Source: Anaerolineae bacterium (GTDB lineage Bacteria > Chloroflexota > Anaerolineae > UBA1429). Taken from it: a stretch of 64,000 nt of DNA. The translations under genes were made by a program, and so were the position numbers. The notes beneath the pieces are model-generated. The model was given only the letters and a program-made list of their open reading frames with translations, was not told where the DNA came from and searched no databases. Of this stretch, positions 11,693-62,606 are shown in pieces. The DNA is taken from NCBI GenBank assembly GCA_040772225.1, contig JAXGYO010000004.1, forward strand, positions 12,233 to 76,232, given 5' to 3'. The stretch's first letter is position 1. The number at the start of each line of letters is the position of its first letter.

Positions 11693-12301
11693 CTATTCTT
11701 GGCTTTGCCCCTCGTACGGCACATGCCACATCCGGTCTACACCGGCCACCCTGCGTGCACTGCCGTACCGCCACTCGGCCGGAGCCTCCACGAGTCCCGC
11801 CTTAACAGGGTTGTTGTGCACGTACAGCACGGCGTTCTCCAGGTGGGTCACGTCGCGGATGTAGCGATCATAGTACTCCCTGTGCCAGAGTGTGCCCTGT
11901 CGACCCAATAGCGCGTTCACCTGCCTGGCCGAGTAGCCTTTCCAGTTCTGCAGCATGCGCGCCAATGGCGTCCCACCGAGGGTTTCGACAACCACATGCA
12001 CGTGGTTCGGCATGATCACCCAGGCCAGCAGGGCGTAGCGTGTGCCGTCATAATGCAGCAGCGTCTCCTCGACGATCTCCGCCACGCGCTCGTCAGCCAG
12101 CAGGCACCCGCCCCAGCCCTGGTCCAGCAGCGCCTGAACCCGGGCCCGCCGCGCGCCCTCGGGTACATCGACTGCCTGCCCCTCCTGGAGCAACCGCAAC
12201 GGCAGGCTGTCCGCCAGGTGGAATGTCACCGCCTGGATCAGTCCCGGCTCGTCACGATGCGGCAGATAACCGCGGGTATACCAGCCCCGGTGTGATGTCA
12301 T
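11693..12301 (-). mobile_element. REP-associated tyrosine transposase (RAYT, Y1 HUH family), copy 1
   Basis: RGYLPH, VTFHLADSLP, WVIMPNHVH (HUH), WKGYSA, LWHREYYDRYIRD, YVHNNPVKAGLV, WRYGSA; flanked by REP doublets. Confidence 0.9.
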
Positions 12302-13889: not shown

Positions 13890-14100
13890 TAACATGGATG
13901 GACAGGGGCGCCGAGTACGGCGCTGACAGGATAGGATCCGGACAAGAGCGTAACATACTCGTAGGGGCAGACCCCGGCATGCCGGTGGCGCGGTGCCCGC
14001 CCCTATTCCTGGCGGCGTGATTGCCGTCTGTGGCCCGCTCCCCGCTGCGGACGGCGACCCTCTCCCATTTACTGGGGAGGGGACGGGGGTGAGGGCTGGT
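13890..14100. repeat. Mosaic of three palindrome/repeat families upstream of DUF559
   Basis: ATGGATGGACAGG...GACAGGATAGGAT, GTAGGGGCAGACCC..., and CCCTCTCCC-N-GGGGAGGGG...GGGGTGAGGG. Confidence 0.6.
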
Positions 14101-14174
14101 GGAGGCAAGGGGGCTGGTTTCGCTTTCCCTGCCACCTACAATCACCTGGTGACCACTTACCGGAGGCACGCACG

Positions 14175-14582
14175 ATGCGCGATGGCAGCGACCCCGATTT
14201 CGTTCAGGAACACCGCTTCATCCGCACCTCAGAACGCATGCAGGGACTGGCGAGGGAGCTTCGCCAACGCATGACGCCCGCGGAGCGTATGCTCTGGCAG
14301 TCGTTGCGCGGGCACCAACTCGGCGGCCTGGCCTTCCGCCGCCAGCATCCGTTTCGGTTCTGCATCGTGGACTTTTACTGTCCCGCGCGGCGGCTGGTCG
14401 TCGAGGTGGATGGGCCCATTCACCTGTCTGAGCGGCAAGCCGATGCCGAACGAGACGCCGCCCTGAGAGAACTGGGGCTGCGGGTGCTGCGCGTGACAAA
14501 CGACGATGTGCTCAACGATCTGCCCGGCACACTGGAACGCATCCGGCGTGCGTGTGAGGAACAGGCGCATAGACAGGAATAG
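14175..14582 (+). CDS. DUF559 / Vsr-like endonuclease domain protein
   Basis: ARELRQRMTPAERMLW..LR, FRRQHP, IVDFYC, LVVEVDGPIH, RDAALRELGLRVLR. Confidence 0.9.
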   Translation: MRDGSDPDFVQEHRFIRTSERMQGLARELRQRMTPAERMLWQSLRGHQLGGLAFRRQHPFRFCIVDFYCPARRLVVEVDGPIHLSERQADAERDAALRELGLRVLRVTNDDVLNDLPGTLERIRRACEEQAHRQE

Positions 14583-14585
14583 GTC

Positions 14586-14665
14586 GTAGCCCTCACCCCG
14601 CCGCGGACGGCGACCCTCTCCCGTTTACGGGAGAGGGTGGCGAGCGCAGCGAGCCGGGAGAGGGC
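14586..14665. repeat. CCCTCACCCC...CCCTCTCCC-N-GGGAGAGGG hairpin element downstream of DUF559
   Basis: Near-direct repeat of 14042-14082 (GCGGACGGCGACCCTCTCCC-N-GGG(A/G)GAGGG). Confidence 0.75.
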
Positions 14666-14677
14666 TTGGCCTCCGCC

Positions 14678-14707
14678 TTGACAACGCCCCCTCGCCGCTC
14701 GTAGACT
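14678..14707 (+). promoter_or_regulatory. Putative sigma70 promoter for mod
   Basis: TTGACA-N18-TAGACT about 40 nt upstream of the ATG. Confidence 0.45.
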
Positions 14708-14744
14708 CCCCTGTGTCGTTGCTCACGCCCGAAAGGATGCACGC

Positions 14745-16658
14745 ATGTCCAAACCAGAACCCCTCGCCACGCCGCCGTCCCACGAGGAGCTGCGGCTGCA
14801 GCGCCTGCGCGCGCTGTACCCGGAACTCGACACCGAAGGCGGGCGCGTCGATCCCCAACGCCTGGCCGGCCTCATTCCAGGCGACTCGCTGGACCCCGGT
14901 CCCGAACGCTATGGCCTCTCGTGGAACGGCAAGCGCGCCGCCCAACAGGCCCTGGCGCTCGGTCCCACCGGCGCCCTGCGCCCCTGCCCGGAAGAGTCCC
15001 TGGACTGGGAGACCACGCGCAACGTCTTTATCGAGGGCGAGAACCTGGAGACGCTGCGCATCATGCTCAAGCCCTACTTTCGCAAGGTCAAGATGATCTA
15101 TATCGACCCGCCCTACAACACCGGCGGCGATTTCATCTACAAAGACAACTATACCGCGCCGGTGGCGGACTATCTGAAAAAGACGGGCCAGGCGGACGAG
15201 GCGGGCAACCTGCTGGTCTCGAACCCGGAGAGCTCGGGGCGCTACCACTCCGACTGGCTGACGATGATGTACCCCCGGCTGGCGCTGGCCCGCGAGCTGC
15301 TGCGCGAGGACGGCGTGCTCTTTTGCTCCATCGACGACCACGAGGTCCACAACCTGCGCCTGCTGCTCAACGAGGTGTTCGGGGAGGAGAACTTTGTCGC
15401 GGCAATCGCCTGGGAGCGGGCGGACAGCCCTCGGATGGATGCCGACTACTTCTCAACGAAGCACGAGTACGTGCTGTGCTGCGCCAGAAACCTGGCTGCG
15501 TTCAGAGTGATCCGGTCTGAGTACGAGGGAGAAGAAGTTCCCGATCACTACAATCGAGTGGATGGCCATGGTAGACGATACTATCTGAAGCCTCTTCGCG
15601 CGATGGGCGGACAGGGCGAGACTAGAGAAGCACGCCCCAACCTGTATTACGCGATCAGCGCACCGGACGGGAGCGAGGTATTCCCAAAGCTCGAGGACGG
15701 ACGCGATGGCGCCTGGAGGTGGGGCCAGGAGAAACTGGCTCGCGAGCGCGCAAGAATCGAGTGGACAGGGTCAGCATCCGAGTGGACGCCATATTACCGT
15801 ATCTACGCAGATGAGAGTCACGGCAGGCCCCCGGAGACCATGGTATTTGCGAAAGATGTAGGGAGCAACCGTACCGCCACGGCGGAACTGAAGGCCCTCT
15901 TCGATGAGGGTCGACCGTTTGACGCCCCGAAACCAGTCGGGCTCCTGAAGCACTTGGTCAGTATGGCATGCGATCCGGAATCGCTCGTACTCGATTTCTT
16001 CTCTGGCTCCGCCACCACGGCCCACGCCCTAATCGATCTTAACAACGCCGACGGCGGCAACCGGCGCTACATTCTTGTGCAGCTCCCTGAGCCGACTGAA
16101 CGCGAGGACTACCCCACCATCGCCGACATCGGCAAGGAGCGTATCCGGCGGGTGGCGGCGCGCATCCGCGAGGAGCGCGCGGGCCAGCTCGACCTGGAGC
16201 AGCGCGAGACGCCGCTGGACCTGGGGATGCGGGTGTTCAAGCTGGGCGCCAGCAGTCTTGCGGACAACAGGCACGAGGCGACCACGGAGGGTCGCCCCGA
16301 CCAGGACGGCGATTATGCCGCCGCACTGCAGGGCTCGCTGGACACGCTACTGCCCGATTGGCGCCCTGAGGACCTGCTGTGGGAGGTGCTCCTGAGAGAG
16401 GGGTTGCCGCTGGACTGCCGTATCGAGACACTGACCGCGGGTCCGCAGACGGTGTACCGCGCCACCGACCCCGACACGGACGGCGACGGCGCCGAGCGCC
16501 GTCTGTACGTCTGCCTGGACGACGCCGTGAGCGACGAGCCGCTGGTGGCCCTGCTGGGCGAGGACCGTAACGCCCGGCTGGTCTGCCGCGAGTCGGCGCT
16601 GGCCGACGACAGCGTGGCCCAGAACCTGGCGCTGCATTGCCGGCTGGTGACGCTGTGA
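14745..16658 (+). CDS. mod: Type III restriction-modification methyltransferase subunit
   Basis: ERYGLSWNGK, IYIDPPYNTG, HSDWLTMMYPRL, LDFFSGSATTAHA (beta-class m6A MTase), adjacent to res. Confidence 0.93.
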   Translation: MSKPEPLATPPSHEELRLQRLRALYPELDTEGGRVDPQRLAGLIPGDSLDPGPERYGLSWNGKRAAQQALALGPTGALRPCPEESLDWETTRNVFIEGENLETLRIMLKPYFRKVKMIYIDPPYNTGGDFIYKDNYTAPVADYLKKTGQADEAGNLLVSNPESSGRYHSDWLTMMYPRLALARELLREDGVLFCSIDDHEVHNLRLLLNEVFGEENFVAAIAWERADSPRMDADYFSTKHEYVLCCARNLAAFRVIRSEYEGEEVPDHYNRVDGHGRRYYLKPLRAMGGQGETREARPNLYYAISAPDGSEVFPKLEDGRDGAWRWGQEKLARERARIEWTGSASEWTPYYRIYADESHGRPPETMVFAKDVGSNRTATAELKALFDEGRPFDAPKPVGLLKHLVSMACDPESLVLDFFSGSATTAHALIDLNNADGGNRRYILVQLPEPTEREDYPTIADIGKERIRRVAARIREERAGQLDLEQRETPLDLGMRVFKLGASSLADNRHEATTEGRPDQDGDYAAALQGSLDTLLPDWRPEDLLWEVLLREGLPLDCRIETLTAGPQTVYRATDPDTDGDGAERRLYVCLDDAVSDEPLVALLGEDRNARLVCRESALADDSVAQNLALHCRLVTL

Positions 16659-17185
16659 TCGGGCGGGCGGCGCGTTTCTGGGCGACCACAGAGGGTGGTC
16701 CCTACGATGGGGTGCGGCGTGTCTCAGCCCCCGCCCCTGTCCCCTCCCCCGTTGACGGGGGAGGGGAACGCAACCGCAGGTTGCGCGGGGTGAGGGCGTT
16801 TGGCGCCGCCCATCCTATTCATCCTGTATATCGATTTTCGTTTTCCTGGGCTGACACGGTGGTCAGCCCCTACGATGGGGTGCGGCGTGTCTCAGCCCCC
16901 GCCCCTGTCCCCTCCCCCGTTGACGGGGGAGGGGAACGCAACCGCAGGTTGCGCGGGGTGAGGGCGTTTGGCGCCGCCCATCCTATTCATCCTGTATATC
17001 GATTTTCGTTTTCCTGGGCTGACACGGTGGTCAGCCCCTACGATGGGGTGCGGCGTGTCTCAGCCCCCGCCCCTGTCCCCTCCCCCGTTGACGGGGGAGG
17101 GGAACGCAACCGCAGGTTGCGAGGGGTGAGGGCCTGCCGGGCGGTGCCGCGCACCCGTCGCCCCAAAGGGCTGGTGACGCTGTGA
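16642..17185. repeat. Insert with 168-bp tandem repeat (about 2.6 copies) bounded by a 17-bp direct repeat GGCTGGTGACGCTGTGA
   Basis: TACGATGGGG recurs at 16703, 16871 and 17039; direct repeat at 16642-16658 and 17169-17185. Confidence 0.9.
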
Positions 17186-19959
17186 AACTGCGCTACGATC
17201 CCAATCTGGACTATCAGGTCGAGGCCGTCAACGCGGTGGCGGAGCTCTTTGCCGGCCAACCCTACGTCGAGGCGGGTGCACGGCAGGACCCCGGCGCCTG
17301 GCAAAGCGGCGCGGGCATGTTCGTCGTGGGAAACCGGCTGGACCTGCCGCCGGAGCAGTTACAGGCCAACCTGCATGAGGTACAGGCGGGTCAGAGCCTC
17401 TTTGCGGACGATGCGCTGCGAACGATCACCCAGGACGTGCATCTCGGCGCGCTGGACGGACCGGTCACCTTTTACAACTATGCCGTCGAGATGGAGACCG
17501 GCACCGGCAAGACGTATGTCTATCTGCGCACGGCGCTGGAGCTGGCCCGCCGCTATGGGCTGCGCAAGTACATCATCGTCGTGCCTTCGGTGGCCATCCG
17601 CGAGGGCGTGCTGAGCGCGCTTCGGGGCACCTACGACCACCTGAGCGCGCTGTTCGGCGGGCAGCCCTACGGCTATGGCGTGTATGACTCGGCCAACCTG
17701 GGCCGCGTCAAGGCCTTCAGCGAGTCGCGCCAGGTGGATATCCTGGTGATGACCCTGCAGTCCTTCAACACCGAGGACAATGTCATCCGCCGCGCGGCGG
17801 ACCGCTTCATGGGGCTGGAGCCCATCCGCCAGTTGCAGGCGGTGCGCCCGGTGCTGATCCTGGACGAGCCGCAGAACATGGAGTCAGAAAACAGCATCGC
17901 GGCGCTCGCGGCGCTCAATCCGCTCATGGCGCTGCGCTACAGCGCCACCCACCGCGACCCTTACAACCTCGTCTATCGCCTCACGCCGGCCGAGGCGCAC
18001 CGGCGACGGATCGTCAAGACCGTTCGCGTGGCGGGCGCGCGGCTGGCGGACGCCGATGACCTGCCCTACATCCAGGTCAACGCGATCCGCTCCGGCAAAA
18101 AGACCATCGAGGCCAGCCTGCGGCTCTCGGTGCTGGACAGCGACGGCGCCATCAACCTGAAGACGGTGACCGTGCGCCCGGGAGCGCGACTGGAGGAGCT
18201 CACTCACCGCAGCCTGTATGCCGGCCTGCGCGTGGAGGAGCTGGACCTGGGGGCCGGGGTGGTCCGCTTGAGCAGAGGCGTCACGATTCCGGTGGGCGAG
18301 GCCGTGGGCGATTATCACGAGGCCATCTTTCAGGCCCAGATCGAGGAGACCGTCGCCCGCCACCTGCGCAAACAGGAGGAGGTGCGCGGGCGGGGCATCA
18401 AGGTGCTTTCGCTCTTTTTCATCGATCGCGTCGCCAACTACTGGATGGAGGACGGCCAGACGCAAGCGCCGCTCATCCGCCGCCTCTTTGACGAGGCCTA
18501 TGAGCGACTGAAAGCCGGGTATGAGGCGTGGCGCGATCTATCGGCGCAGGATGTGCAGGCGGGCTATTTTGCCTCCAGCAGCAAGACCAGCCTCAACCCT
18601 GTGGACACCGGCGGGACGTCGCAGCGCGACCGCGACGCGTACGACCTGATCATGCGCGACAAAGAGCGGCTGCTCTCCTTTGACGATCCGCACGCCTTTA
18701 TCTTTACCCACTCGGCGCTCCGCGAGGGGTGGGACAACCCCAATGTGTTCCAGATCTGCACGCTCAACCAGACCGTGTCCACCGCGCGCAAGCGGCAGGA
18801 GATCGGGCGCGGCGTGCGCATACCCGTGGATCAGCAGGGCCAGCGCGTGTTCGACGAGCGACTCAACGTGCTCACGGTGGTGGCTAACCAGTCGTACCGG
18901 GCCTTTGTGGCCGAGTACCACGACGAGGTGCTGGCCGCCAGCCGGACACAGATTCAGGCGCACTATGGCGTGCCACCGGAGGAGCTGAGCGAGGCGCAGC
19001 GCGAGGAGGCGGCGCGCCTCTACGGCGCGGAGGCCGCCCCGGCGCCGGAGGACGCCCGTGACGAGATCAGGGTGACGCTCCGCAGCGAGCGCTACGAGTC
19101 GGCTGACTTTCAGGCGCTTTGGAACGCCATCGCCGCCAAAGCGCGCTACCGGGTGCGCATCGACACCGAGGCGCTTGTGTCGCGGGTGTTGGCGCGCTAC
19201 GCAGAGCTGCGGGTGAGCGCCCCGCAGGTCGTCGTCGAGTACGGCCACCTCATCGGCGAGGACGGCAAGCCCGGGCTCCAGAGCGGCGAGGGAACAACGG
19301 TCACCGTTGGCCCGCCGCGCGAGCGACCCAACCTGCTGCTCCTCGTGAGTGAGATGCTGGCCGCCAGCACGCCGCCGCTGCGCATCACGCGCCGGACCAT
19401 CCTGCGCATCCTCCAGTCGCTGCCGGAGGCCATCCGAGAGGGGATGGCGGTCAATCCCACGGCCTTTGCCACGGCCCTGACACGGGTCCTGGCGGAGGAG
19501 TTGCGCCGCGAGATGGTCCACGAGATCAGCTATGTGCCGACGGGTGAGGCGTGGGACCGCGCCAAACTCGAAGAGAGCTTTGAGCGGCTGCAGCGCGCGC
19601 TCGAACCCAGCGCGGGCAAGGCCCTGTACGACCACGTCGACGTGGACTCGGAGATCGAGCGGCAAGTCGCGCGGGCGCTGGAGGCGCACGAACGGGTGCG
19701 GCTGTATCTCAAGCTGCCGCGCTGGTTCCAGGTGGCCACCCCTTACGGCGGCTACGCCCCCGACTGGGCCATCCTCGTCGAGCGCGACGGCGGAGCGGAC
19801 TGCGTGAAACTGATCCGCGAGACCAAGGCCAGCGCGAGCAGCGAGGACCTGCGGGGCCGGGAGGCGGCAGCCATCGCCTGCGGCCGCGAGCATTTCCGGG
19901 CGCTGGGCGTCGAGTACGCCGTGGCAACCGGGCCGGAGAGCCTGCGGCTGGAAGGGTAG
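17182..19959 (+). CDS. res: Type III restriction endonuclease subunit
   Basis: VEMETGTGKTYVY, ILDEPQ, LRYSATH, LREGWDNPNVFQIC, QEIGRGVR, C-terminal PDWA...ETK nuclease. Confidence 0.93.
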   Translation: MKLRYDPNLDYQVEAVNAVAELFAGQPYVEAGARQDPGAWQSGAGMFVVGNRLDLPPEQLQANLHEVQAGQSLFADDALRTITQDVHLGALDGPVTFYNYAVEMETGTGKTYVYLRTALELARRYGLRKYIIVVPSVAIREGVLSALRGTYDHLSALFGGQPYGYGVYDSANLGRVKAFSESRQVDILVMTLQSFNTEDNVIRRAADRFMGLEPIRQLQAVRPVLILDEPQNMESENSIAALAALNPLMALRYSATHRDPYNLVYRLTPAEAHRRRIVKTVRVAGARLADADDLPYIQVNAIRSGKKTIEASLRLSVLDSDGAINLKTVTVRPGARLEELTHRSLYAGLRVEELDLGAGVVRLSRGVTIPVGEAVGDYHEAIFQAQIEETVARHLRKQEEVRGRGIKVLSLFFIDRVANYWMEDGQTQAPLIRRLFDEAYERLKAGYEAWRDLSAQDVQAGYFASSSKTSLNPVDTGGTSQRDRDAYDLIMRDKERLLSFDDPHAFIFTHSALREGWDNPNVFQICTLNQTVSTARKRQEIGRGVRIPVDQQGQRVFDERLNVLTVVANQSYRAFVAEYHDEVLAASRTQIQAHYGVPPEELSEAQREEAARLYGAEAAPAPEDARDEIRVTLRSERYESADFQALWNAIAAKARYRVRIDTEALVSRVLARYAELRVSAPQVVVEYGHLIGEDGKPGLQSGEGTTVTVGPPRERPNLLLLVSEMLAASTPPLRITRRTILRILQSLPEAIREGMAVNPTAFATALTRVLAEELRREMVHEISYVPTGEAWDRAKLEESFERLQRALEPSAGKALYDHVDVDSEIERQVARALEAHERVRLYLKLPRWFQVATPYGGYAPDWAILVERDGGADCVKLIRETKASASSEDLRGREAAAIACGREHFRALGVEYAVATGPESLRLEG

Positions 19960-28062: not shown

Positions 28063-28689
28063 ATCCCCTCCCCTCGTTCGCGTCCCGTCCTGCTGATCCT
28101 GTGTCAGGAGCGCATGGAACATCGAATCTACCGTCTCCACGCGCCTCGCACTCCCAAACCGCCACTCCCGCGGGTCTGACACCAATCCAGCCTTGACCGG
28201 ATTGTTGTGCACATAAAGCACCGCGCGCTGGAGATGATTCTCATCCCGAATGTACCGGTCATAATACTCCCGCGCCCAAACGCCGCCCTGTCGCCCCAAC
28301 ACGAGGTTAGCTTGCCTCGCTGTGCCACCTTTCCAGCTCTGCAGGATGCGCGCCAGCGACCACTCGCCCAGCGCTTCGATCAGAACGTGGACATGATTGG
28401 GCATCACCACCCATGCCAGGAGCACGTACCGGGAACCATCACCAGCCAGTAGCGCCTCCTCGACCACCTCCGCCACGCGCGGATCCCTCAGAAGGCAAGA
28501 GCCCGCACCTGCGTCCATCAGGCGTTGGGCACGCGCTCGCCCGGACACGTCTGCCTCGCCCTCGGAGGCCATCAGAGAAAGCAGAGCAGCCGGGAGACTG
28601 TCCACCAGGCGGAAGGTAATGGCCTGGATCAGCCCCGGCTCATCGCGGTGCGGCAGACGGCGGCGGTACCAGCCCTTGTGCTCTGTCAT
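28054..28689 (-). mobile_element. REP-associated tyrosine transposase (RAYT), copy 2
   Basis: RRLPHRDEPG, ITFRLVDSLP, VVMPNHVH, WAREYYDRYIRD, YVHNNPVKAGLV; close paralog of copy 1. Confidence 0.9.
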
Positions 28690-46906: not shown

Positions 46907-48221
46907 TGGAGGGTCAGCCTCTGGCTGACCCACGTGAGAGGGCGGGCTGTAACGCCGCGGTCCACAGAGGGACTCCCTGGAGGGTCGGTCTCCGACCGAC
47001 CCTCGGTCAGTCAGAGACTGACCGTCCAACAAGAGGGGCGGGCTGTAACGCCGCGGTCCGTCCAACAGAGGGGCGGGCTGTAACGCCGCGGTCCTGGAGG
47101 GTCGGTCTCCGACCGACCCTCGGTCAGTCAGAGACTGACCGTCCAACAGAGGGGCGGGCTGTAACGCCGCGGTCCACAGAGCGACTCCCTGGAGGGTCGG
47201 TCTCCGGACCCTCGGTCAGTCAGAGACTGACCGTAGGGGCGGGCTGTAACGCCGCGGTCCACAGACGCCTGGAGGGTCGGTCTCCAGAGACTGACCGTCC
47301 AACAGAGGGGCGGGCTGTAACGCCGCGGTCCACAGAGGACTCCCTGGAGGGTCGGTCTCCGACCGACCCTCGGTCAGTCAGAGACTGACCGTCCAACAGG
47401 AGGGGCGGGCTGTAACGCCGCGGTCCACAGAGCGACTCCCTGGAGGGTCGGTCTCCGACCGACCCTCGGTCAGTCAGAGACTGACCGTCCGGAGGGGCGG
47501 GCTGTAACGCCGCGGTCCACAGAGCGACTCCCTGGAGGGTCGGTCTCCGACCGACCCTCGGTCAGTCAGAGACTGACCGTCCAACAAGAGGGGCGGGCTG
47601 TAACGCCGCGGTCCACAGAGGGACTCCCTGGAGGGTCGGTCTCCGACCGACCCTCCTCCGTCCAACAAGAGGGGGCGGGCTGTAACGCCGCGGTCCACGG
47701 AGCGACTCCCTGGAGGGTCGGTCTCCGACCGACCCTCGGTCAGTCAGAGACTGACCGTCCAACAAGAGGGGCGGGCTGTAACGCCGCGGTCCACAGAGGG
47801 ACTCCCTGGAGGGTCGGTCTCCGACCGACCCTCGGTCAGTCAGAGACTGACCGTCCAACCTGTAACGCCGCGGTCCACAGAGGACTCCTGGAGGGTCGGT
47901 CTCCGACCGACCCTCGGTCAGTCAGAGACTGACCGTCCAACAGGAGGGGCGGGCTGTAACGCCGCGGTCCACGGACTCCCTGGAGGGTCGGTCTCCGACC
48001 GACCCTCGGTCAGTCAGAGACTGACCGTCCAACAGGAGGGGCGGGCTGTAACGCCGCGGTCCACAGAGGGACTCCCTGGAGGGTCGGTCTCGACCGACCC
48101 TCGGTCAGTCAGAGACTGACCGTCCAACAAGAGGGGCGGGCTGTAACGCCGCGGTCCACAGAGCGACTCCCTGGAGGGTCGGTCTCCGACCGACCCTCGG
48201 TCAGTCAGAGACTGACCGTCC
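46907..48221. repeat. BIME-like tandem array, about 96-bp unit, about 15 units
   Basis: Unit GGGCGGGCTGTAACGCCGCGGTCC-ACAGAG(G/C)GACTCCCT-GGAGGGTCGGTCTCCGACCGACCC-T-CGGTCAGTCAGAGACTGACCGTCC-AACAAGAG; several units are internally deleted. Confidence 0.92.
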
Positions 48222-48229
48222 AGCAGGCG

Positions 48230-61694: not shown

Positions 61695-62606
61695 CGACCG
61701 CCGACATTCCTGTCGGCTCCGGAGCGCCGGCATCCGCTGTACCCAGCGGCACCGCCAAGCACCTGGCCGGGCGCGGAGTACAACTCCGCGCCCCAGGATC
61801 TCCCTGGACCGCCGACATTCTTGTCGGCCCCGGTAAGGGTCGGTCACTGACCGACCCTCCAAGCCACGCCCCAGGACCTCCCTGGACCGCCGACATTCTT
61901 GTCGGCTCCGGAGCGCCGGCATCCGCTGTACCCAGCGGCACCGCCAAGCACCTGGCCGGTCGCGGAGTACAACTCCGCGCCCCAGGATCTCCCTGGACCG
62001 CCCACATTCCTGTCGGCCCCGGTAAGGGTCGGTCAGAGACCGACCCTCCAAGCGCGCGCACCAGGCCCCCTGGACCGCCGAATCCGCTGTACCCAGCGGC
62101 ACTGTCGGCCCCGGAGCGCAGGCATCCGCCGTACCCGGCGGCACTGTCGGCCCCGGTGTGGGTCGGTCAGAGACCGACCCTCCACTCCGCGCCCCAGGAT
62201 CTCCCTGGACCGCCGAATCCGCTGTACCCAGCGGCACTGTCAGCGGCACCGGAGCGCCGCCATCCGTAAGGCGGCACTGTCGGCGAATCCGCTGTAAGGG
62301 TCGGTCAGAGACCGACCCTCCAAGCCGCGCCCCAGGACCCCCTGGACCGCCGAATCCGCTGTACCCAGCGGCACTGTGTCGGCATCCCTGTACCCGGCGG
62401 CAGCGCAGGCATCCGCCGTACCCGGCGCCCACACTGTCGGCCCGGTGTGGGTCGGTCAGAGACCGACCCTCCAAGCCGCGCCCCAGGACCCCCTGGACCG
62501 CCGAATCCGCTGTACCCAGCGGCACTGTCGGCTCCGGAGCGCGCCATCCGCTGTACCCAGCGGCACTGTCGGCCCCGGTAAGGGTCGGTCAGAGACCGAC
62601 CCTCCC
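61695..62606. repeat. Composite REP array (about 190-bp duplicated units, then shorter variants)
   Basis: GGACCGCCGACATTC(C/T)TGTCGGC, CCGCTG-TACC-CAGCGG and GGGTCGGTCAGAGACCGACCCTCC modules repeated. Confidence 0.88.

Follow-up and report, generated by a model that had tools for sequence, protein, structure and literature searches.

A Repeat Block between Duplicated Stop/Start Junctions in a Type III Restriction-Modification Operon of an Anaerolineae Bacterium

Between the mod and res genes in a Type III restriction-modification operon from the genome considered here lie 510 bp of G+C-rich tandem repeats, bounded on each side by a copy of the same 17 bp. I hold it somewhat more probable than otherwise that a noncoding block of hairpin-bearing repeats was inserted, as a one-off event, into a GTGA overlap of the two genes, that 17 bp were duplicated, and that res initiates its own translation. 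The block would be 2.6 copies of a 168-bp unit made of REP-type palindromes, placed in the stop/start overlap of the operon, and the palindromes appear to be of the kinds that fill the accessory contigs of the genome. All coordinates below are those of the window, i.e., the whole 64,000-nt stretch of DNA that was analyzed.

A preliminary description of the region had proposed both an inserted repeat block and a possible relay of translation through it. The first of these is supported: the junction is duplicated, the hairpins are of REP type, both genes are intact, and the architecture of a relay is present. The second loses much of its force, in that the open frame across the insert occurs at chance level and res has its own Shine-Dalgarno (SD) sequence.

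The Operon and Its Duplicated Junction

The assignment of mod and res to a Type III restriction-modification operon is made from the domain content of their products. Mod matches PF01555 at residues 115–434 of 637 (E = 8.4e-32), Res matches PF04851 (1.2e-10), for the superfamily-2 helicase ResIII, and PF19778 (4.3e-32), for a C-terminal endonuclease domain, and res lies directly 3' of mod on the same strand. The features of the operon are as follows.

14678–14707, plus strand: promoter-like site TTGACA-18-TAGACT, upstream of mod, the sole sigma-70-like match in 14400–17600
14745–16658, plus strand: mod, Type III methyltransferase subunit (637 aa, N6_N4_Mtase), whose C-terminus reaches the end of its homologs in alignment
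16642–16658, plus strand: first copy of the 17-mer, encoding the last Mod codons, (R)LVTL, and TGA, and holding GGTGA and the GTG at 16655 that opens a 176-codon frame
16655–17185, plus strand: the stop-free 176-codon frame, from GTG 16655 to a TGA (17183–17185) that overlaps the res GTG at 17182
17169–17185, plus strand: second copy of the 17-mer, with the res SD GGTGA (17173–17177), a 4-nt spacer, the res GTG (17182) and the TGA that closes the 176-codon frame
17182–19959, plus strand: res, Type III restriction subunit (925 aa, ResIII helicase and RE_endonuc), whose alignment with homologs begins at residue 1

The 17-mer, GGCTGGTGACGCTGTGA, had been reported at the end of mod and at the start of res, and the two copies are indeed exact, with 527 bp from start to start. 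They are the only ones in the whole genome (3,140,101 bp), counting exact and one-mismatch copies. The expectation of a second copy within 1 kb, based on composition, is 1e-7, and the duplication is far above chance level. The edges of these perfect direct repeats are sharp: beyond the two copies, identity falls to 30% and 23% over 30 nt, which marks the sequences there as unrelated. Removal of one 17-mer and the 510-bp insert would yield a GTGA overlap, as the preliminary description had it, and the same arrangement is seen in 3 of 27 tight mod/res junctions in homologous loci. Spacing between the genes is −4 to +15 nt in 25 of those 27.

Judged from the alignments, mod and res are both intact despite the insert, and they would remain so because the copies of the junction keep the end of the one and the start signals of the other. 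The mod stop codon (TGA, 16656–16658) is overlapped by GTG 16655, and the left 17-mer would preserve the C-terminus of Mod together with this stop. The right 17-mer would preserve the res SD GGTGA (which lies inside the last codons of mod), the spacer and the GTG. The last codons of mod read AAGGT(G) in 6 of the 27 tight homologous junctions, as counted by eye, and the res SD sequence therefore normally lies within mod.

The 3' end of the 16S rRNA is GATCACCTCCTTTCT. For res, the SD duplex is predicted at −11.6 kcal/mol, as compared to −9.6 for mod and −9.2 for the start of the 176-codon frame. Of 5000 random genomic 19-mers, 2.6% attain the value of res. A strong ribosome-binding site belonging to res itself had been named beforehand as evidence against a relay, and a site of this description is what the second 17-mer contains. 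Initiation of res is most likely at this duplicated site, independently of mod. The promoter-like site upstream of mod probably drives transcription of the two genes together. The predicted sequestration of the res start is uninformative: the region is mostly paired, with a mean unpaired probability of 0.26, but the prediction for a hypothetical empty site is also 0.26, and shuffles fold about as stably as the local sequence (z = −0.42).

The duplicated junction might also have been made by a repeat-induced misjoin during assembly. Short-read assemblers have difficulty with tandem repeats of 168 bp, and the short-read contigs do break inside the repeat. Nonetheless, an artefact is very improbable. 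All three DNA runs, each from a different study, have contigs that span the left junction and are continuous from mod across 16658/16659 to 16729 with 0–1 differences. Contigs beginning at 17105, 17163 and 17167 lead from the last part of the insert into the second 17-mer and on into res. One contig from an RNA library (16327–16751) also runs from mod into the insert, with seven differences, two of them in the first copy of the 17-mer (16642 and 16644); DNA carry-over may account for this contig, which hence is no proof of transcription and is silent on level or processing. Misassembly had been raised earlier as a possible objection, but the left junction recurs in independent samples and hence is not a misjoin. 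The assembled copy number is 2.6. The repeat contigs have about 2–5 times the depth of the flanks in X1, X3 and X5, a figure that reflects not copy number but contig depth summed with that of other organisms.

Anatomy of the Insert

The insert is built of three complete or partial units between two short arms, and each unit carries three hairpins.

16659–17168, unstranded: 510-bp insert, 68.6% G+C, in which arms of 16 nt (left) and 35 nt (right) enclose 2.6 tandem 168-bp units
16675–17133, unstranded: tandem units, at 16675–16842, 16843–17010 and 17011–17133 (the last partial)
16684–16705, minus strand: GTAG-tagged palindrome of unit 1, with variant stem GACCAC/GTGGTC
16848–16873, minus strand: GTAG-tagged palindrome of the family GTAGGGGC-NNNN-CACCGT-NNNN-GCCC, with a second copy at 17016–17041 and relatives on contigs C3 and C4
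16740–16767, unstranded: second hairpin, a perfect 13-bp stem, TCCCCTCCCCCGT/ACGGGGGAGGGGA, with more copies at 16908–16935 and 17076–17103
16769–16785, unstranded: third hairpin, CGCAACCGCAGGTTGCG, with more copies at 16937–16953 and 17105–17121

Tandem Repeats Finder gives a period of 168, 2.6 copies and 99% matches at 16700–17133, in agreement with the unit length given earlier, which was also correctly said to be a multiple of three (3 × 56). Units 2 and 3 differ by one base across their common part, and the main difference between units 1 and 2 is that unit 1 has another first hairpin. On the minus strand, the first hairpin of each unit is GTAG plus a palindrome, and its family has about 12 relatives, with compensatory stems, on C3 and C4. 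The family of the second hairpin has about 13 copies in the genome, and other hairpin families of the same genome have 52–85. By their sequence, then, the hairpins of the insert are members of low-copy REP-like families of their own genome. The genome also has seven Y1_Tnp matches above cut-off, several of them within hairpin arrays.

A consensus scan of the insert, with sigma-70 as the one promoter type considered, detected neither a sigma-70-like promoter nor an intrinsic terminator, no terminal inverted repeat joins the two ends among the inverted-repeat pairs listed, and Rfam returned sub-threshold matches only. A 25-nt likeness between mod (16277–16301) and unit 1 (21/25) was set aside as about what chance would give, by estimate, in 7.5 kb of such composition.

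A DUF559 gene just upstream of mod lies between two 52-nt direct repeats, both of the second-hairpin type. A general link between the hairpin and DUF559 is not supported: none of 16 hairpin loci in other genomes has a DUF559 relative within about 1.5 kb.

Distribution of the Repeat Unit and of Empty Sites

One earlier proposal had made the block a cassette with gene junctions as its insertion sites. The searches argue for a different view, that the 168-bp unit is a sequence of a single locus and not a recurrent cassette. Within its own genome, the unit finds its own locus and one 40-nt hairpin on C3, and the genome offers no donor for the arms and spacer. Twelve of the 401 genomes of the class (400 besides this one) have matches, all of at most 70 nt and nearly all to the second hairpin, the one portion of the unit that has relatives in genomes besides its own; the unit as a whole was not found in the 400. 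A search of plasmids gave no match, a search of phages gave one marginal match of 45 nt (E = 1e-3), and an exact 22-mer of the unit has no match in metagenome and viral contigs.

The genome was also scanned for sharply bounded exact direct repeats 15–60 nt long and 60–4000 nt apart. This produced 300 pairs, mostly within hairpin arrays among the matches listed, and a repeat block at a gene junction was seen in none of the six non-array pairs inspected.

An empty site, for which the preliminary description had suggested comparing orthologous mod-res loci, was found in none of 41 relatives, 401 genomes of the class, 80 homologous loci or four sequencing runs. The DNA search of the 41 relatives returned nothing that crosses the junction, its strongest match apart from self being 128 nt at 80% inside res, and an exact 26-mer of the right junction has no match in metagenome contigs. 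A scan of genome contigs with Res as the query reached at most 54% identity, and relatives are encoded in 599 of 600 candidate stretches of other genomes, many with mod directly upstream. Since neither an empty-site allele nor a second insertion of the unit came to light, a single insertion event is inferred from the sequence rather than observed.

In the homologous loci, the mod-res junction is repeatedly a landing place for defence-type cargo genes, a pattern of possible interest for the mapping of defence islands. The cargo in the gap includes AAA_21, Fic, RhuM, Bro-N, ApeA-HEPN and a second methylase. The junction is duplicated in none of the 25 homologous loci with a long, cargo-bearing gap.

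The Open Frame across the Insert

The 176-codon frame that runs from GTG 16655 to the TGA overlapping the res start is present as described, and it is the sole stop-free frame of the six in the insert, the others having 3–5 stops each. Its openness is at the level of chance. In architecture-matched nulls, 36% of 5000 dinucleotide shuffles leave the frame open, as do 46% of 5000 GC-matched genomic units set in the same architecture. Among the tandem arrays of the genome with periods of at least 40, 32 of 42 have at least one open spanning frame, and the seven arrays of 400–600 nt have 16 open frames out of 42. The open frame across the insert is about what chance leads one to expect in GC-rich DNA.

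The frame also has no coding signature as judged by GC content at codon positions 1/2/3, which is.71/.63/.70, compared to.69/.45/.82 for mod and.71/.44/.88 for res. The 176-aa product has no Pfam match and no relative among proteins of 96–308 aa. The frame is most simply explained as a side effect of the G+C content, 69%, together with a unit length that is a multiple of three. Ribosomes could well traverse it, but these results do not support selection for their passage or a need for it. If the register at both ends is counted as one chance in three, the joint chance comes to about 0.12–0.15, or to about 0.05 with a unit of 3n as a condition, low enough that selection for a relay should not be dismissed. 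It is possible that ribosomes are carried in this way from mod to res. More generally, long open frames across G+C-rich repeat arrays call for a null model before they are called genes or selected relays.

Possible Effects and Origins

The architecture invites comparison with the MIRUs of mycobacteria. Ribosomes that end mod would reinitiate at GTG 16655, cross the hairpins in frame and reinitiate at the res GTG, so that the insert is tolerated or used because coupling persists, and gain or loss of 168 bp would tune the Res:Mod ratio. This fits the GTGA overlaps at both ends, their exact register, the 3n unit, the presence of the sole open frame on the right strand, and the same GGTGA SD sequence at the start of the frame. 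The predicted pairing of the res start would favor dependence on upstream ribosomes, and the same logic is described for MIRUs in the portion of PMC12548453 considered here. I nevertheless think a relay unlikely, in view of the frequency of open frames in the matched nulls and in arrays of comparable length, the lack of coding signature, an SD sequence for res stronger than that of mod, an accessibility of the res start predicted to be equal with and without the insert, and the restriction of the unit to one locus. Should it be true, the MIRU principle would extend to another lineage and to a restriction system, where it matters for self-protection which of Mod and Res is made first and in what ratio the two are made. 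The fullest version, in which a REP-derived minisatellite of variable copy number duplicated the junction of SD, start and stop as a MIRU-type device outside mycobacteria, its frame of 56 codons per unit relaying ribosomes and its unit number setting the Res:Mod ratio, is a long shot. The block might instead act as an RNA barrier or processing site that lowers or delays res relative to mod, a safe arrangement for a restriction system, the open frame being irrelevant. Intercistronic REP elements alter the relative expression of the genes that flank them. The region containing the insert (16630–17300) has a predicted fold of −393.5 kcal/mol, much more stable than that of shuffles (z = −8.1), the insert includes three perfect 13-bp G+C stems, and it stands between a protective gene and a dangerous one. 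Small repeats are known to participate in the control of gene expression, and one MIRU is transcribed within a polycistronic mRNA (according to the part of PMC3184786 consulted). On the other hand, the consensus scan found no terminator-like site in the insert, and the RNA-library contig that enters it shows neither level nor processing. Such attenuation is a tentative but reasonable possibility. On the reading favored above, the net effect is likely to be a structured spacer that loosens rather than preserves the coupling of mod and res.

The length of the duplication raises the question of its origin. Target duplications of bacterial transposons are usually shorter than 17 bp, and the duplication here is unusually long. 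Integrase core sites are closer to it in length, and the 17-mers could be the core of an att-type site-specific or homology-driven integration, the 510 bp being the remnant of an integrating element or a non-autonomous rider on one, rather than the product of transposition-like target duplication. The perfect repeats with sharp edges and the recurrent arrival of cargo at homologous junctions are consistent with this, but no recombinase lies beside the insert, the genome has no third copy of the 17-mer, the cargo-bearing homologous loci lack a duplicated junction, and the content of the insert is REP-type hairpins. I regard integration of this kind as improbable. If the plain reading is true, that of a noncoding repeat block inserted once into the overlap, the locus is a natural example of an operon of overlapping genes that survived an insertion, in which only a duplication of the shared stop, SD and start, here 17 bp, leaves both genes working.

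Comparison with Known Systems

The idea of a relay is itself already known from mycobacterial MIRUs (PMC12548453, in the portion considered). There, the open frame of the MIRU overlaps the downstream start, and it has been proposed that an insertion leaves the expression of the downstream gene nearly unchanged (PMC12548453, PMC3184786). The insert resembles MIRUs in being tandem noncoding units between co-oriented genes of an operon, in the overlap of its frame with the downstream start by −4 nt (GTGA at 16655–16658 and 17182–17185), and in the short direct repeats that flank the filled site, although these are 4 bp in MIRUs and 17 bp at mod/res. It departs from them in size (168 bp per unit, as compared to about 40–100 bp; PMC3184786) and in dispersal, MIRUs having about 40–50 loci per genome and the 168-bp unit just one in 3.14 Mb. 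It departs from them also in its content, GTAG-tagged and other G+C-rich palindromes.

The spread of REPs by the Y1 type of transposase is not known to make a target duplication, and the 17-bp duplication is for this reason at odds with an origin by REP/RAYT spread. The elements of the insert are similar to REPs and BIMEs, being short, G+C-rich, imperfect palindromes, some tagged with GTAG, arrayed outside of genes, and the Y1_Tnp matches in the genome, several in hairpin arrays, recall the association of REPs with RAYTs. REP superfamilies tagged with GTAG and CGTC have been described (PMC3733652), as have REP-associated tyrosine transposases (PMC2817692). According to the part of the latter source considered, REPs usually number more than 100 per genome, far above the roughly 12 copies of the GTAG family and 13 of the second-hairpin family. 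With MITEs the insert shares small size, lack of coding content, a stable RNA fold, flanking direct repeats and an intergenic site in an operon (PMC3184786). It differs from them in having no terminal inverted repeats (among the pairs listed), a single copy and no parent insertion sequence, and its 17-bp duplication is much longer than the 5 bp given for one element in the portion of PMC3184786 consulted.

Stop/start overlaps of the form NTGA, the kind associated with termination-reinitiation coupling, are common in prokaryotic operons (PMC6728339, PMC12548453, as far as the portions considered go), and both ends of the 176-codon frame are overlaps of this sort, GTGA in each case. What sets the mod/res junction apart, as known here from sequence, is that repeat DNA with a 176-codon frame links two such overlaps in series, where the ordinary overlap joins two real genes.

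The duplicated junction

The two genes at the junction form a Type III mod-res pair:

14745-16658: mod, product of 637 aa with an N6_N4_Mtase domain
17182-19959: res, product of 925 aa with ResIII helicase and RE_endonuc domains

The 17-mer GGCTGGTGACGCTGTGA occurs at 16642-16658, at the end of mod, and again at 17169-17185, at the start of res, and the 3,140,101-bp genome contains no further copy, exact or with one mismatch. From composition, the expectation for another copy within 1 kb would be about 1e-7. The 30-nt flanks of one copy are unlike those of the other (30% and 23% identity), so the edges of the repeat are sharp. The duplication is real and non-random.

Between the copies lies an insert of 510 bp (68.6% G+C), in which a 168-bp unit is repeated 2.6 times (16700-17133; 99% matches by Tandem Repeats Finder). 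The stop codon of mod (TGA, 16656-16658) is overlapped by a GTG at 16655, which opens a frame of 176 codons, here called the relay frame, that ends at the TGA at 17183-17185, itself overlapping the res GTG at 17182. In each of the remaining five frames the insert has three to five stops. The preliminary description, made by a model from the sequence alone, was accurate in all of this: the pair of 17-mers, the unit, the GTGA overlaps, and the open frame.

Presence in independent samples

Part or more of the stretch is present in 20 public runs from 12 studies of anaerobic digesters, wastewater and the like, and four of the runs were compared with the window contig by contig. Contigs from three DNA runs in three studies continue from mod through the first 17-mer into the insert (from 16200 or 16365 to 16729, with 0-1 differences), and none of the contigs in the four runs leads straight from mod into res. 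At the res end, contigs begin at 17105, 17163 or 17167 and run on into res. The longest extends 28 letters beyond the insert edge, as against the 31 of the bridging rule, which leaves the right junction supported without a formal bridge. Every contig breaks within the repeat, so that the assembly's figure of 2.6 copies is provisional. A contig from an RNA library (16327-16751) carries G16642A and C16644T, giving a variant of the first 17-mer unlike that of the window. Misassembly had been raised at the outset as a danger to the whole case; with the left junction crossed in three studies and no direct join found, it is very improbable that an artefact of assembly created the duplicated junction.

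The mod-res junction in homologous loci

Species-representative genomes were scanned for Res, and relatives of it are encoded in 599 of the 600 candidate stretches. The best 80 of these loci were retained, the closest Res among them having 54% identity, and the last 250 residues of Mod and first 250 of Res were aligned to them. Since in most loci Mod aligns up to its last residue and Res from residue 1, both genes in the window are complete, with res truly starting at GTG 17182. The junction is tight in 27 loci, bears a gap of 241-2971 nt in 25, and has an unresolved res start in one; the rest have no upstream Mod match (23, many cut at a contig end) or lack the Res N-terminus (4). The spacing lies between -4 and +15 nt in 25 of the 27 tight junctions, three of these 25 having the NTGA overlap at -4. 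A GTGA overlap is among the normal states of this junction.

A duplicated junction was found in none of the 25 long-gap loci, where the longest common words are 4-8 nt, all inside the local null. The frequency of such gaps makes the mod-res junction a recurrent landing place of defence-type cargo. Often there is an extra gene, namely AAA_21 (AbiEii-like ATPase), a second N6_N4 methylase, Fic/DOC, ApeA-HEPN, Bro-N or RhuM (cargo was noted in loci L014, L016, L028, L038, L050, L057 and L067); one further product matches 23S_rRNA_IVP under the family cut-off. The homologue from Neisseria viridiae (L090, 3760-4000) has a non-coding 241-nt spacer, whose translation resembles the intergenic repeats known from Neisseria. 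If it is one of these, repeat DNA occupies the mod-res junction here as well, in this case without duplication of the junction.

Composition of the insert and search for other copies

Each unit consists of three palindromes and an A+T-richer spacer. The first palindrome carries, on the minus strand, the tag GTAG ahead of a hairpin (units 2 and 3: GTAGGGGCTGACCACCGTGTCAGCCC; unit 1: GTAGGGACCACCCTCTGTGGTC), and has about 12 relatives on contigs C3 and C4 of the same genome, alike in tag, outer stem and loop and with compensatory inner stems (for example GTAGGGGCGCACCACCGTGTGCGCCC, in 8 copies). The second, a perfect 13-bp stem (TCCCCTCCCCCGT/ACGGGGGAGGGGA), is a member of a loose genomic family (about 13 copies). 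It alone of the unit's parts is matched in other genomes, one of which, of the same genus, has the second and third hairpins together, with compensatory changes.

Across the genome there are 42 tandem arrays with a period of at least 40, concentrated on its smaller contigs (C3-C9) and composed of several hairpin families (e.g., GCCGACA..TGTCGGC, 85 copies; GACGGTC..GACCGTC, 61 copies). The Y1 (IS200/IS605-type) transposase family has seven matches in the genome, several within hairpin arrays, an arrangement that looks like REP-RAYT-type systems; one match (C5:79833-80066) is inside arrays C5:78598-81366. Examples are:

47139-48227 (C4:59371-60459): tandem array
61696-62377 (C4:73928-74609): tandem array
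11810-12091, minus strand: Y1 match
28201-28431, minus strand: Y1 match
C3, C4, C5: also with Y1 matches

From its hairpins, the arrays and the Y1 matches, the insert is a small array of REP-type elements.

The preliminary description had proposed a recurrent cassette, for which the searches gave no evidence. The unit is confined to one locus in its genome, where unit, spacer and both arms have no match elsewhere. Unit matches at E <= 1e-5 occur in 12 of 401 genomes of the class, its own included, the non-self matches all being of at most 70 nt and nearly all to the second hairpin. The plasmid search gave no match and the phage search a single marginal one of 45 nt; scans of metagenome and viral contigs with an exact 22-mer found nothing. 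Among the pairs listed in a genome-wide search for sharply bounded exact direct repeats, hairpin arrays predominate, and the six non-array pairs examined from that list were all unrelated things. In public runs X3 and X5, metagenome contigs have loose ends at window 17008 and 17040: the start of the unit is joined there to a related but different spacer (about 18 of the first 21 bases the same, then divergent), and the first hairpin runs on into other sequence. These samples may therefore hold variants or relatives of the unit.

The relay frame and chance

With arms kept, three copies of one unit and the frame set by the GTG, 36% of 5000 shuffled units (dinucleotide-preserving) left the relay frame without a stop, as did 46% of 5000 168-mers drawn from the genome at matched GC. 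The register (527 = 3n+2) contributes, by inference, a factor of about 1/3, for a joint chance of about 0.12-0.15, or roughly 0.05 if the 3n unit is counted as an extra condition; these figures are weak support for a relay, the feature being chosen after the fact. Other evidence also speaks for chance. At codon positions 1/2/3 the relay frame has a G+C of.71/.63/.70, as compared with.69/.45/.82 in mod and.71/.44/.88 in res; the 176-codon product has no Pfam match and no relative among the 96-308-aa proteins of a large collection. At least one frame is open over the entire array in 32 of the 42 tandem arrays, as are 16 of 42 frames in the seven arrays of 400-600 nt, some of which arrays may be within real genes. 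G+C-rich repeat DNA yields the relay architecture about four times in ten.

Start signals of res and transcription

The 3' end of the 16S rRNA (GATCACCTCCTTTCT) pairs with GGTGA at 17173-17177, within the second 17-mer and 4 nt ahead of the res GTG, so that res has the start signal of its own that might tell against a relay. Over the 19 nt preceding res, the best predicted duplex has -11.6 kcal/mol, which 2.6% of 5000 random 19-mers of the genome attain; the mod start has -9.6 and the relay start -9.2. What makes the res duplex more stable is AAAG, at the insert's right end. Six of the 27 tight homologous junctions, read by eye, have AAGGT(G) in the last mod codons, so that mod normally contains the ribosome-binding site of res. 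The 17-bp duplication is just long enough to include it.

The scan of the insert revealed neither a sigma-70-like promoter nor an intrinsic terminator, and the sole promoter-like site found is upstream of mod (14678-14707). Directly upstream of that site is a DUF559 gene (14175-14582; 135 aa; Pfam E = 8.5e-33), the genome's one match to DUF559. Two direct repeats of 52 nt (87% identity, 556 bp apart) bracket it (14030-14637), each a complete G+C-rich palindromic element of the type of the insert's second hairpin.

Origin and working of the insert

I consider it probable that a REP-type array was inserted once into a former GTGA overlap, that res starts by itself, and that the open frame is incidental. 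The 17-bp duplication, made or kept along with the insertion, would leave mod its last codons and stop, and res its Shine-Dalgarno sequence, spacer and start, both genes remaining on one transcript. The duplication may have arisen by a staggered break with fill-in, by a template switch in replication, by a tandem junction duplication that an array then filled, or by att-type integration, each of which is possible. REP spread via Y1 transposases does not explain it, since such spread is not known to produce a duplication.

A working relay, in which ribosomes pass from mod to res through the insert, I regard as unlikely. The relay architecture is present and the duplication real, as the preliminary description had it, but the recurrent cassette it envisaged is not found and res has its own start signals. 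The insert might instead be a structured spacer reducing res relative to mod, a doubtful proposition though less so than the relay, and compatible with an incidental frame and a self-starting res. The predicted RNA fold of 16630-17300, which contains the insert, is -393.5 kcal/mol (z = -8.1; equalled by none of 20 shuffles). The local fold at the res start is no better than shuffles (z = -0.42), and the predicted accessibility of that start is low (mean unpaired 0.26), the same with and without the insert.

Comparison with known systems

Mycobacterial MIRUs, according to PMC12548453, have an internal ORF coupled to the gene at -4 nt spacing, likely minimizing the effect on expression; in that text, the idea of the preliminary description is already the published view of MIRUs. 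They are described in PMC3184786 as units of about 40-100 bp in some 40-50 copies per genome, with tetranucleotide direct repeats, transcribed within polycistronic mRNA and with ends that overlap adjacent genes. Measured against these accounts, the window element is MIRU-like in architecture but differs in unit size and dispersion, and it is flanked by a repeat of 17 bp. As a single copy without terminal inverted repeats, it is no MITE. In content it comes nearest to REP/BIME arrays: an intercistronic REP-type array with a MIRU-like layout.
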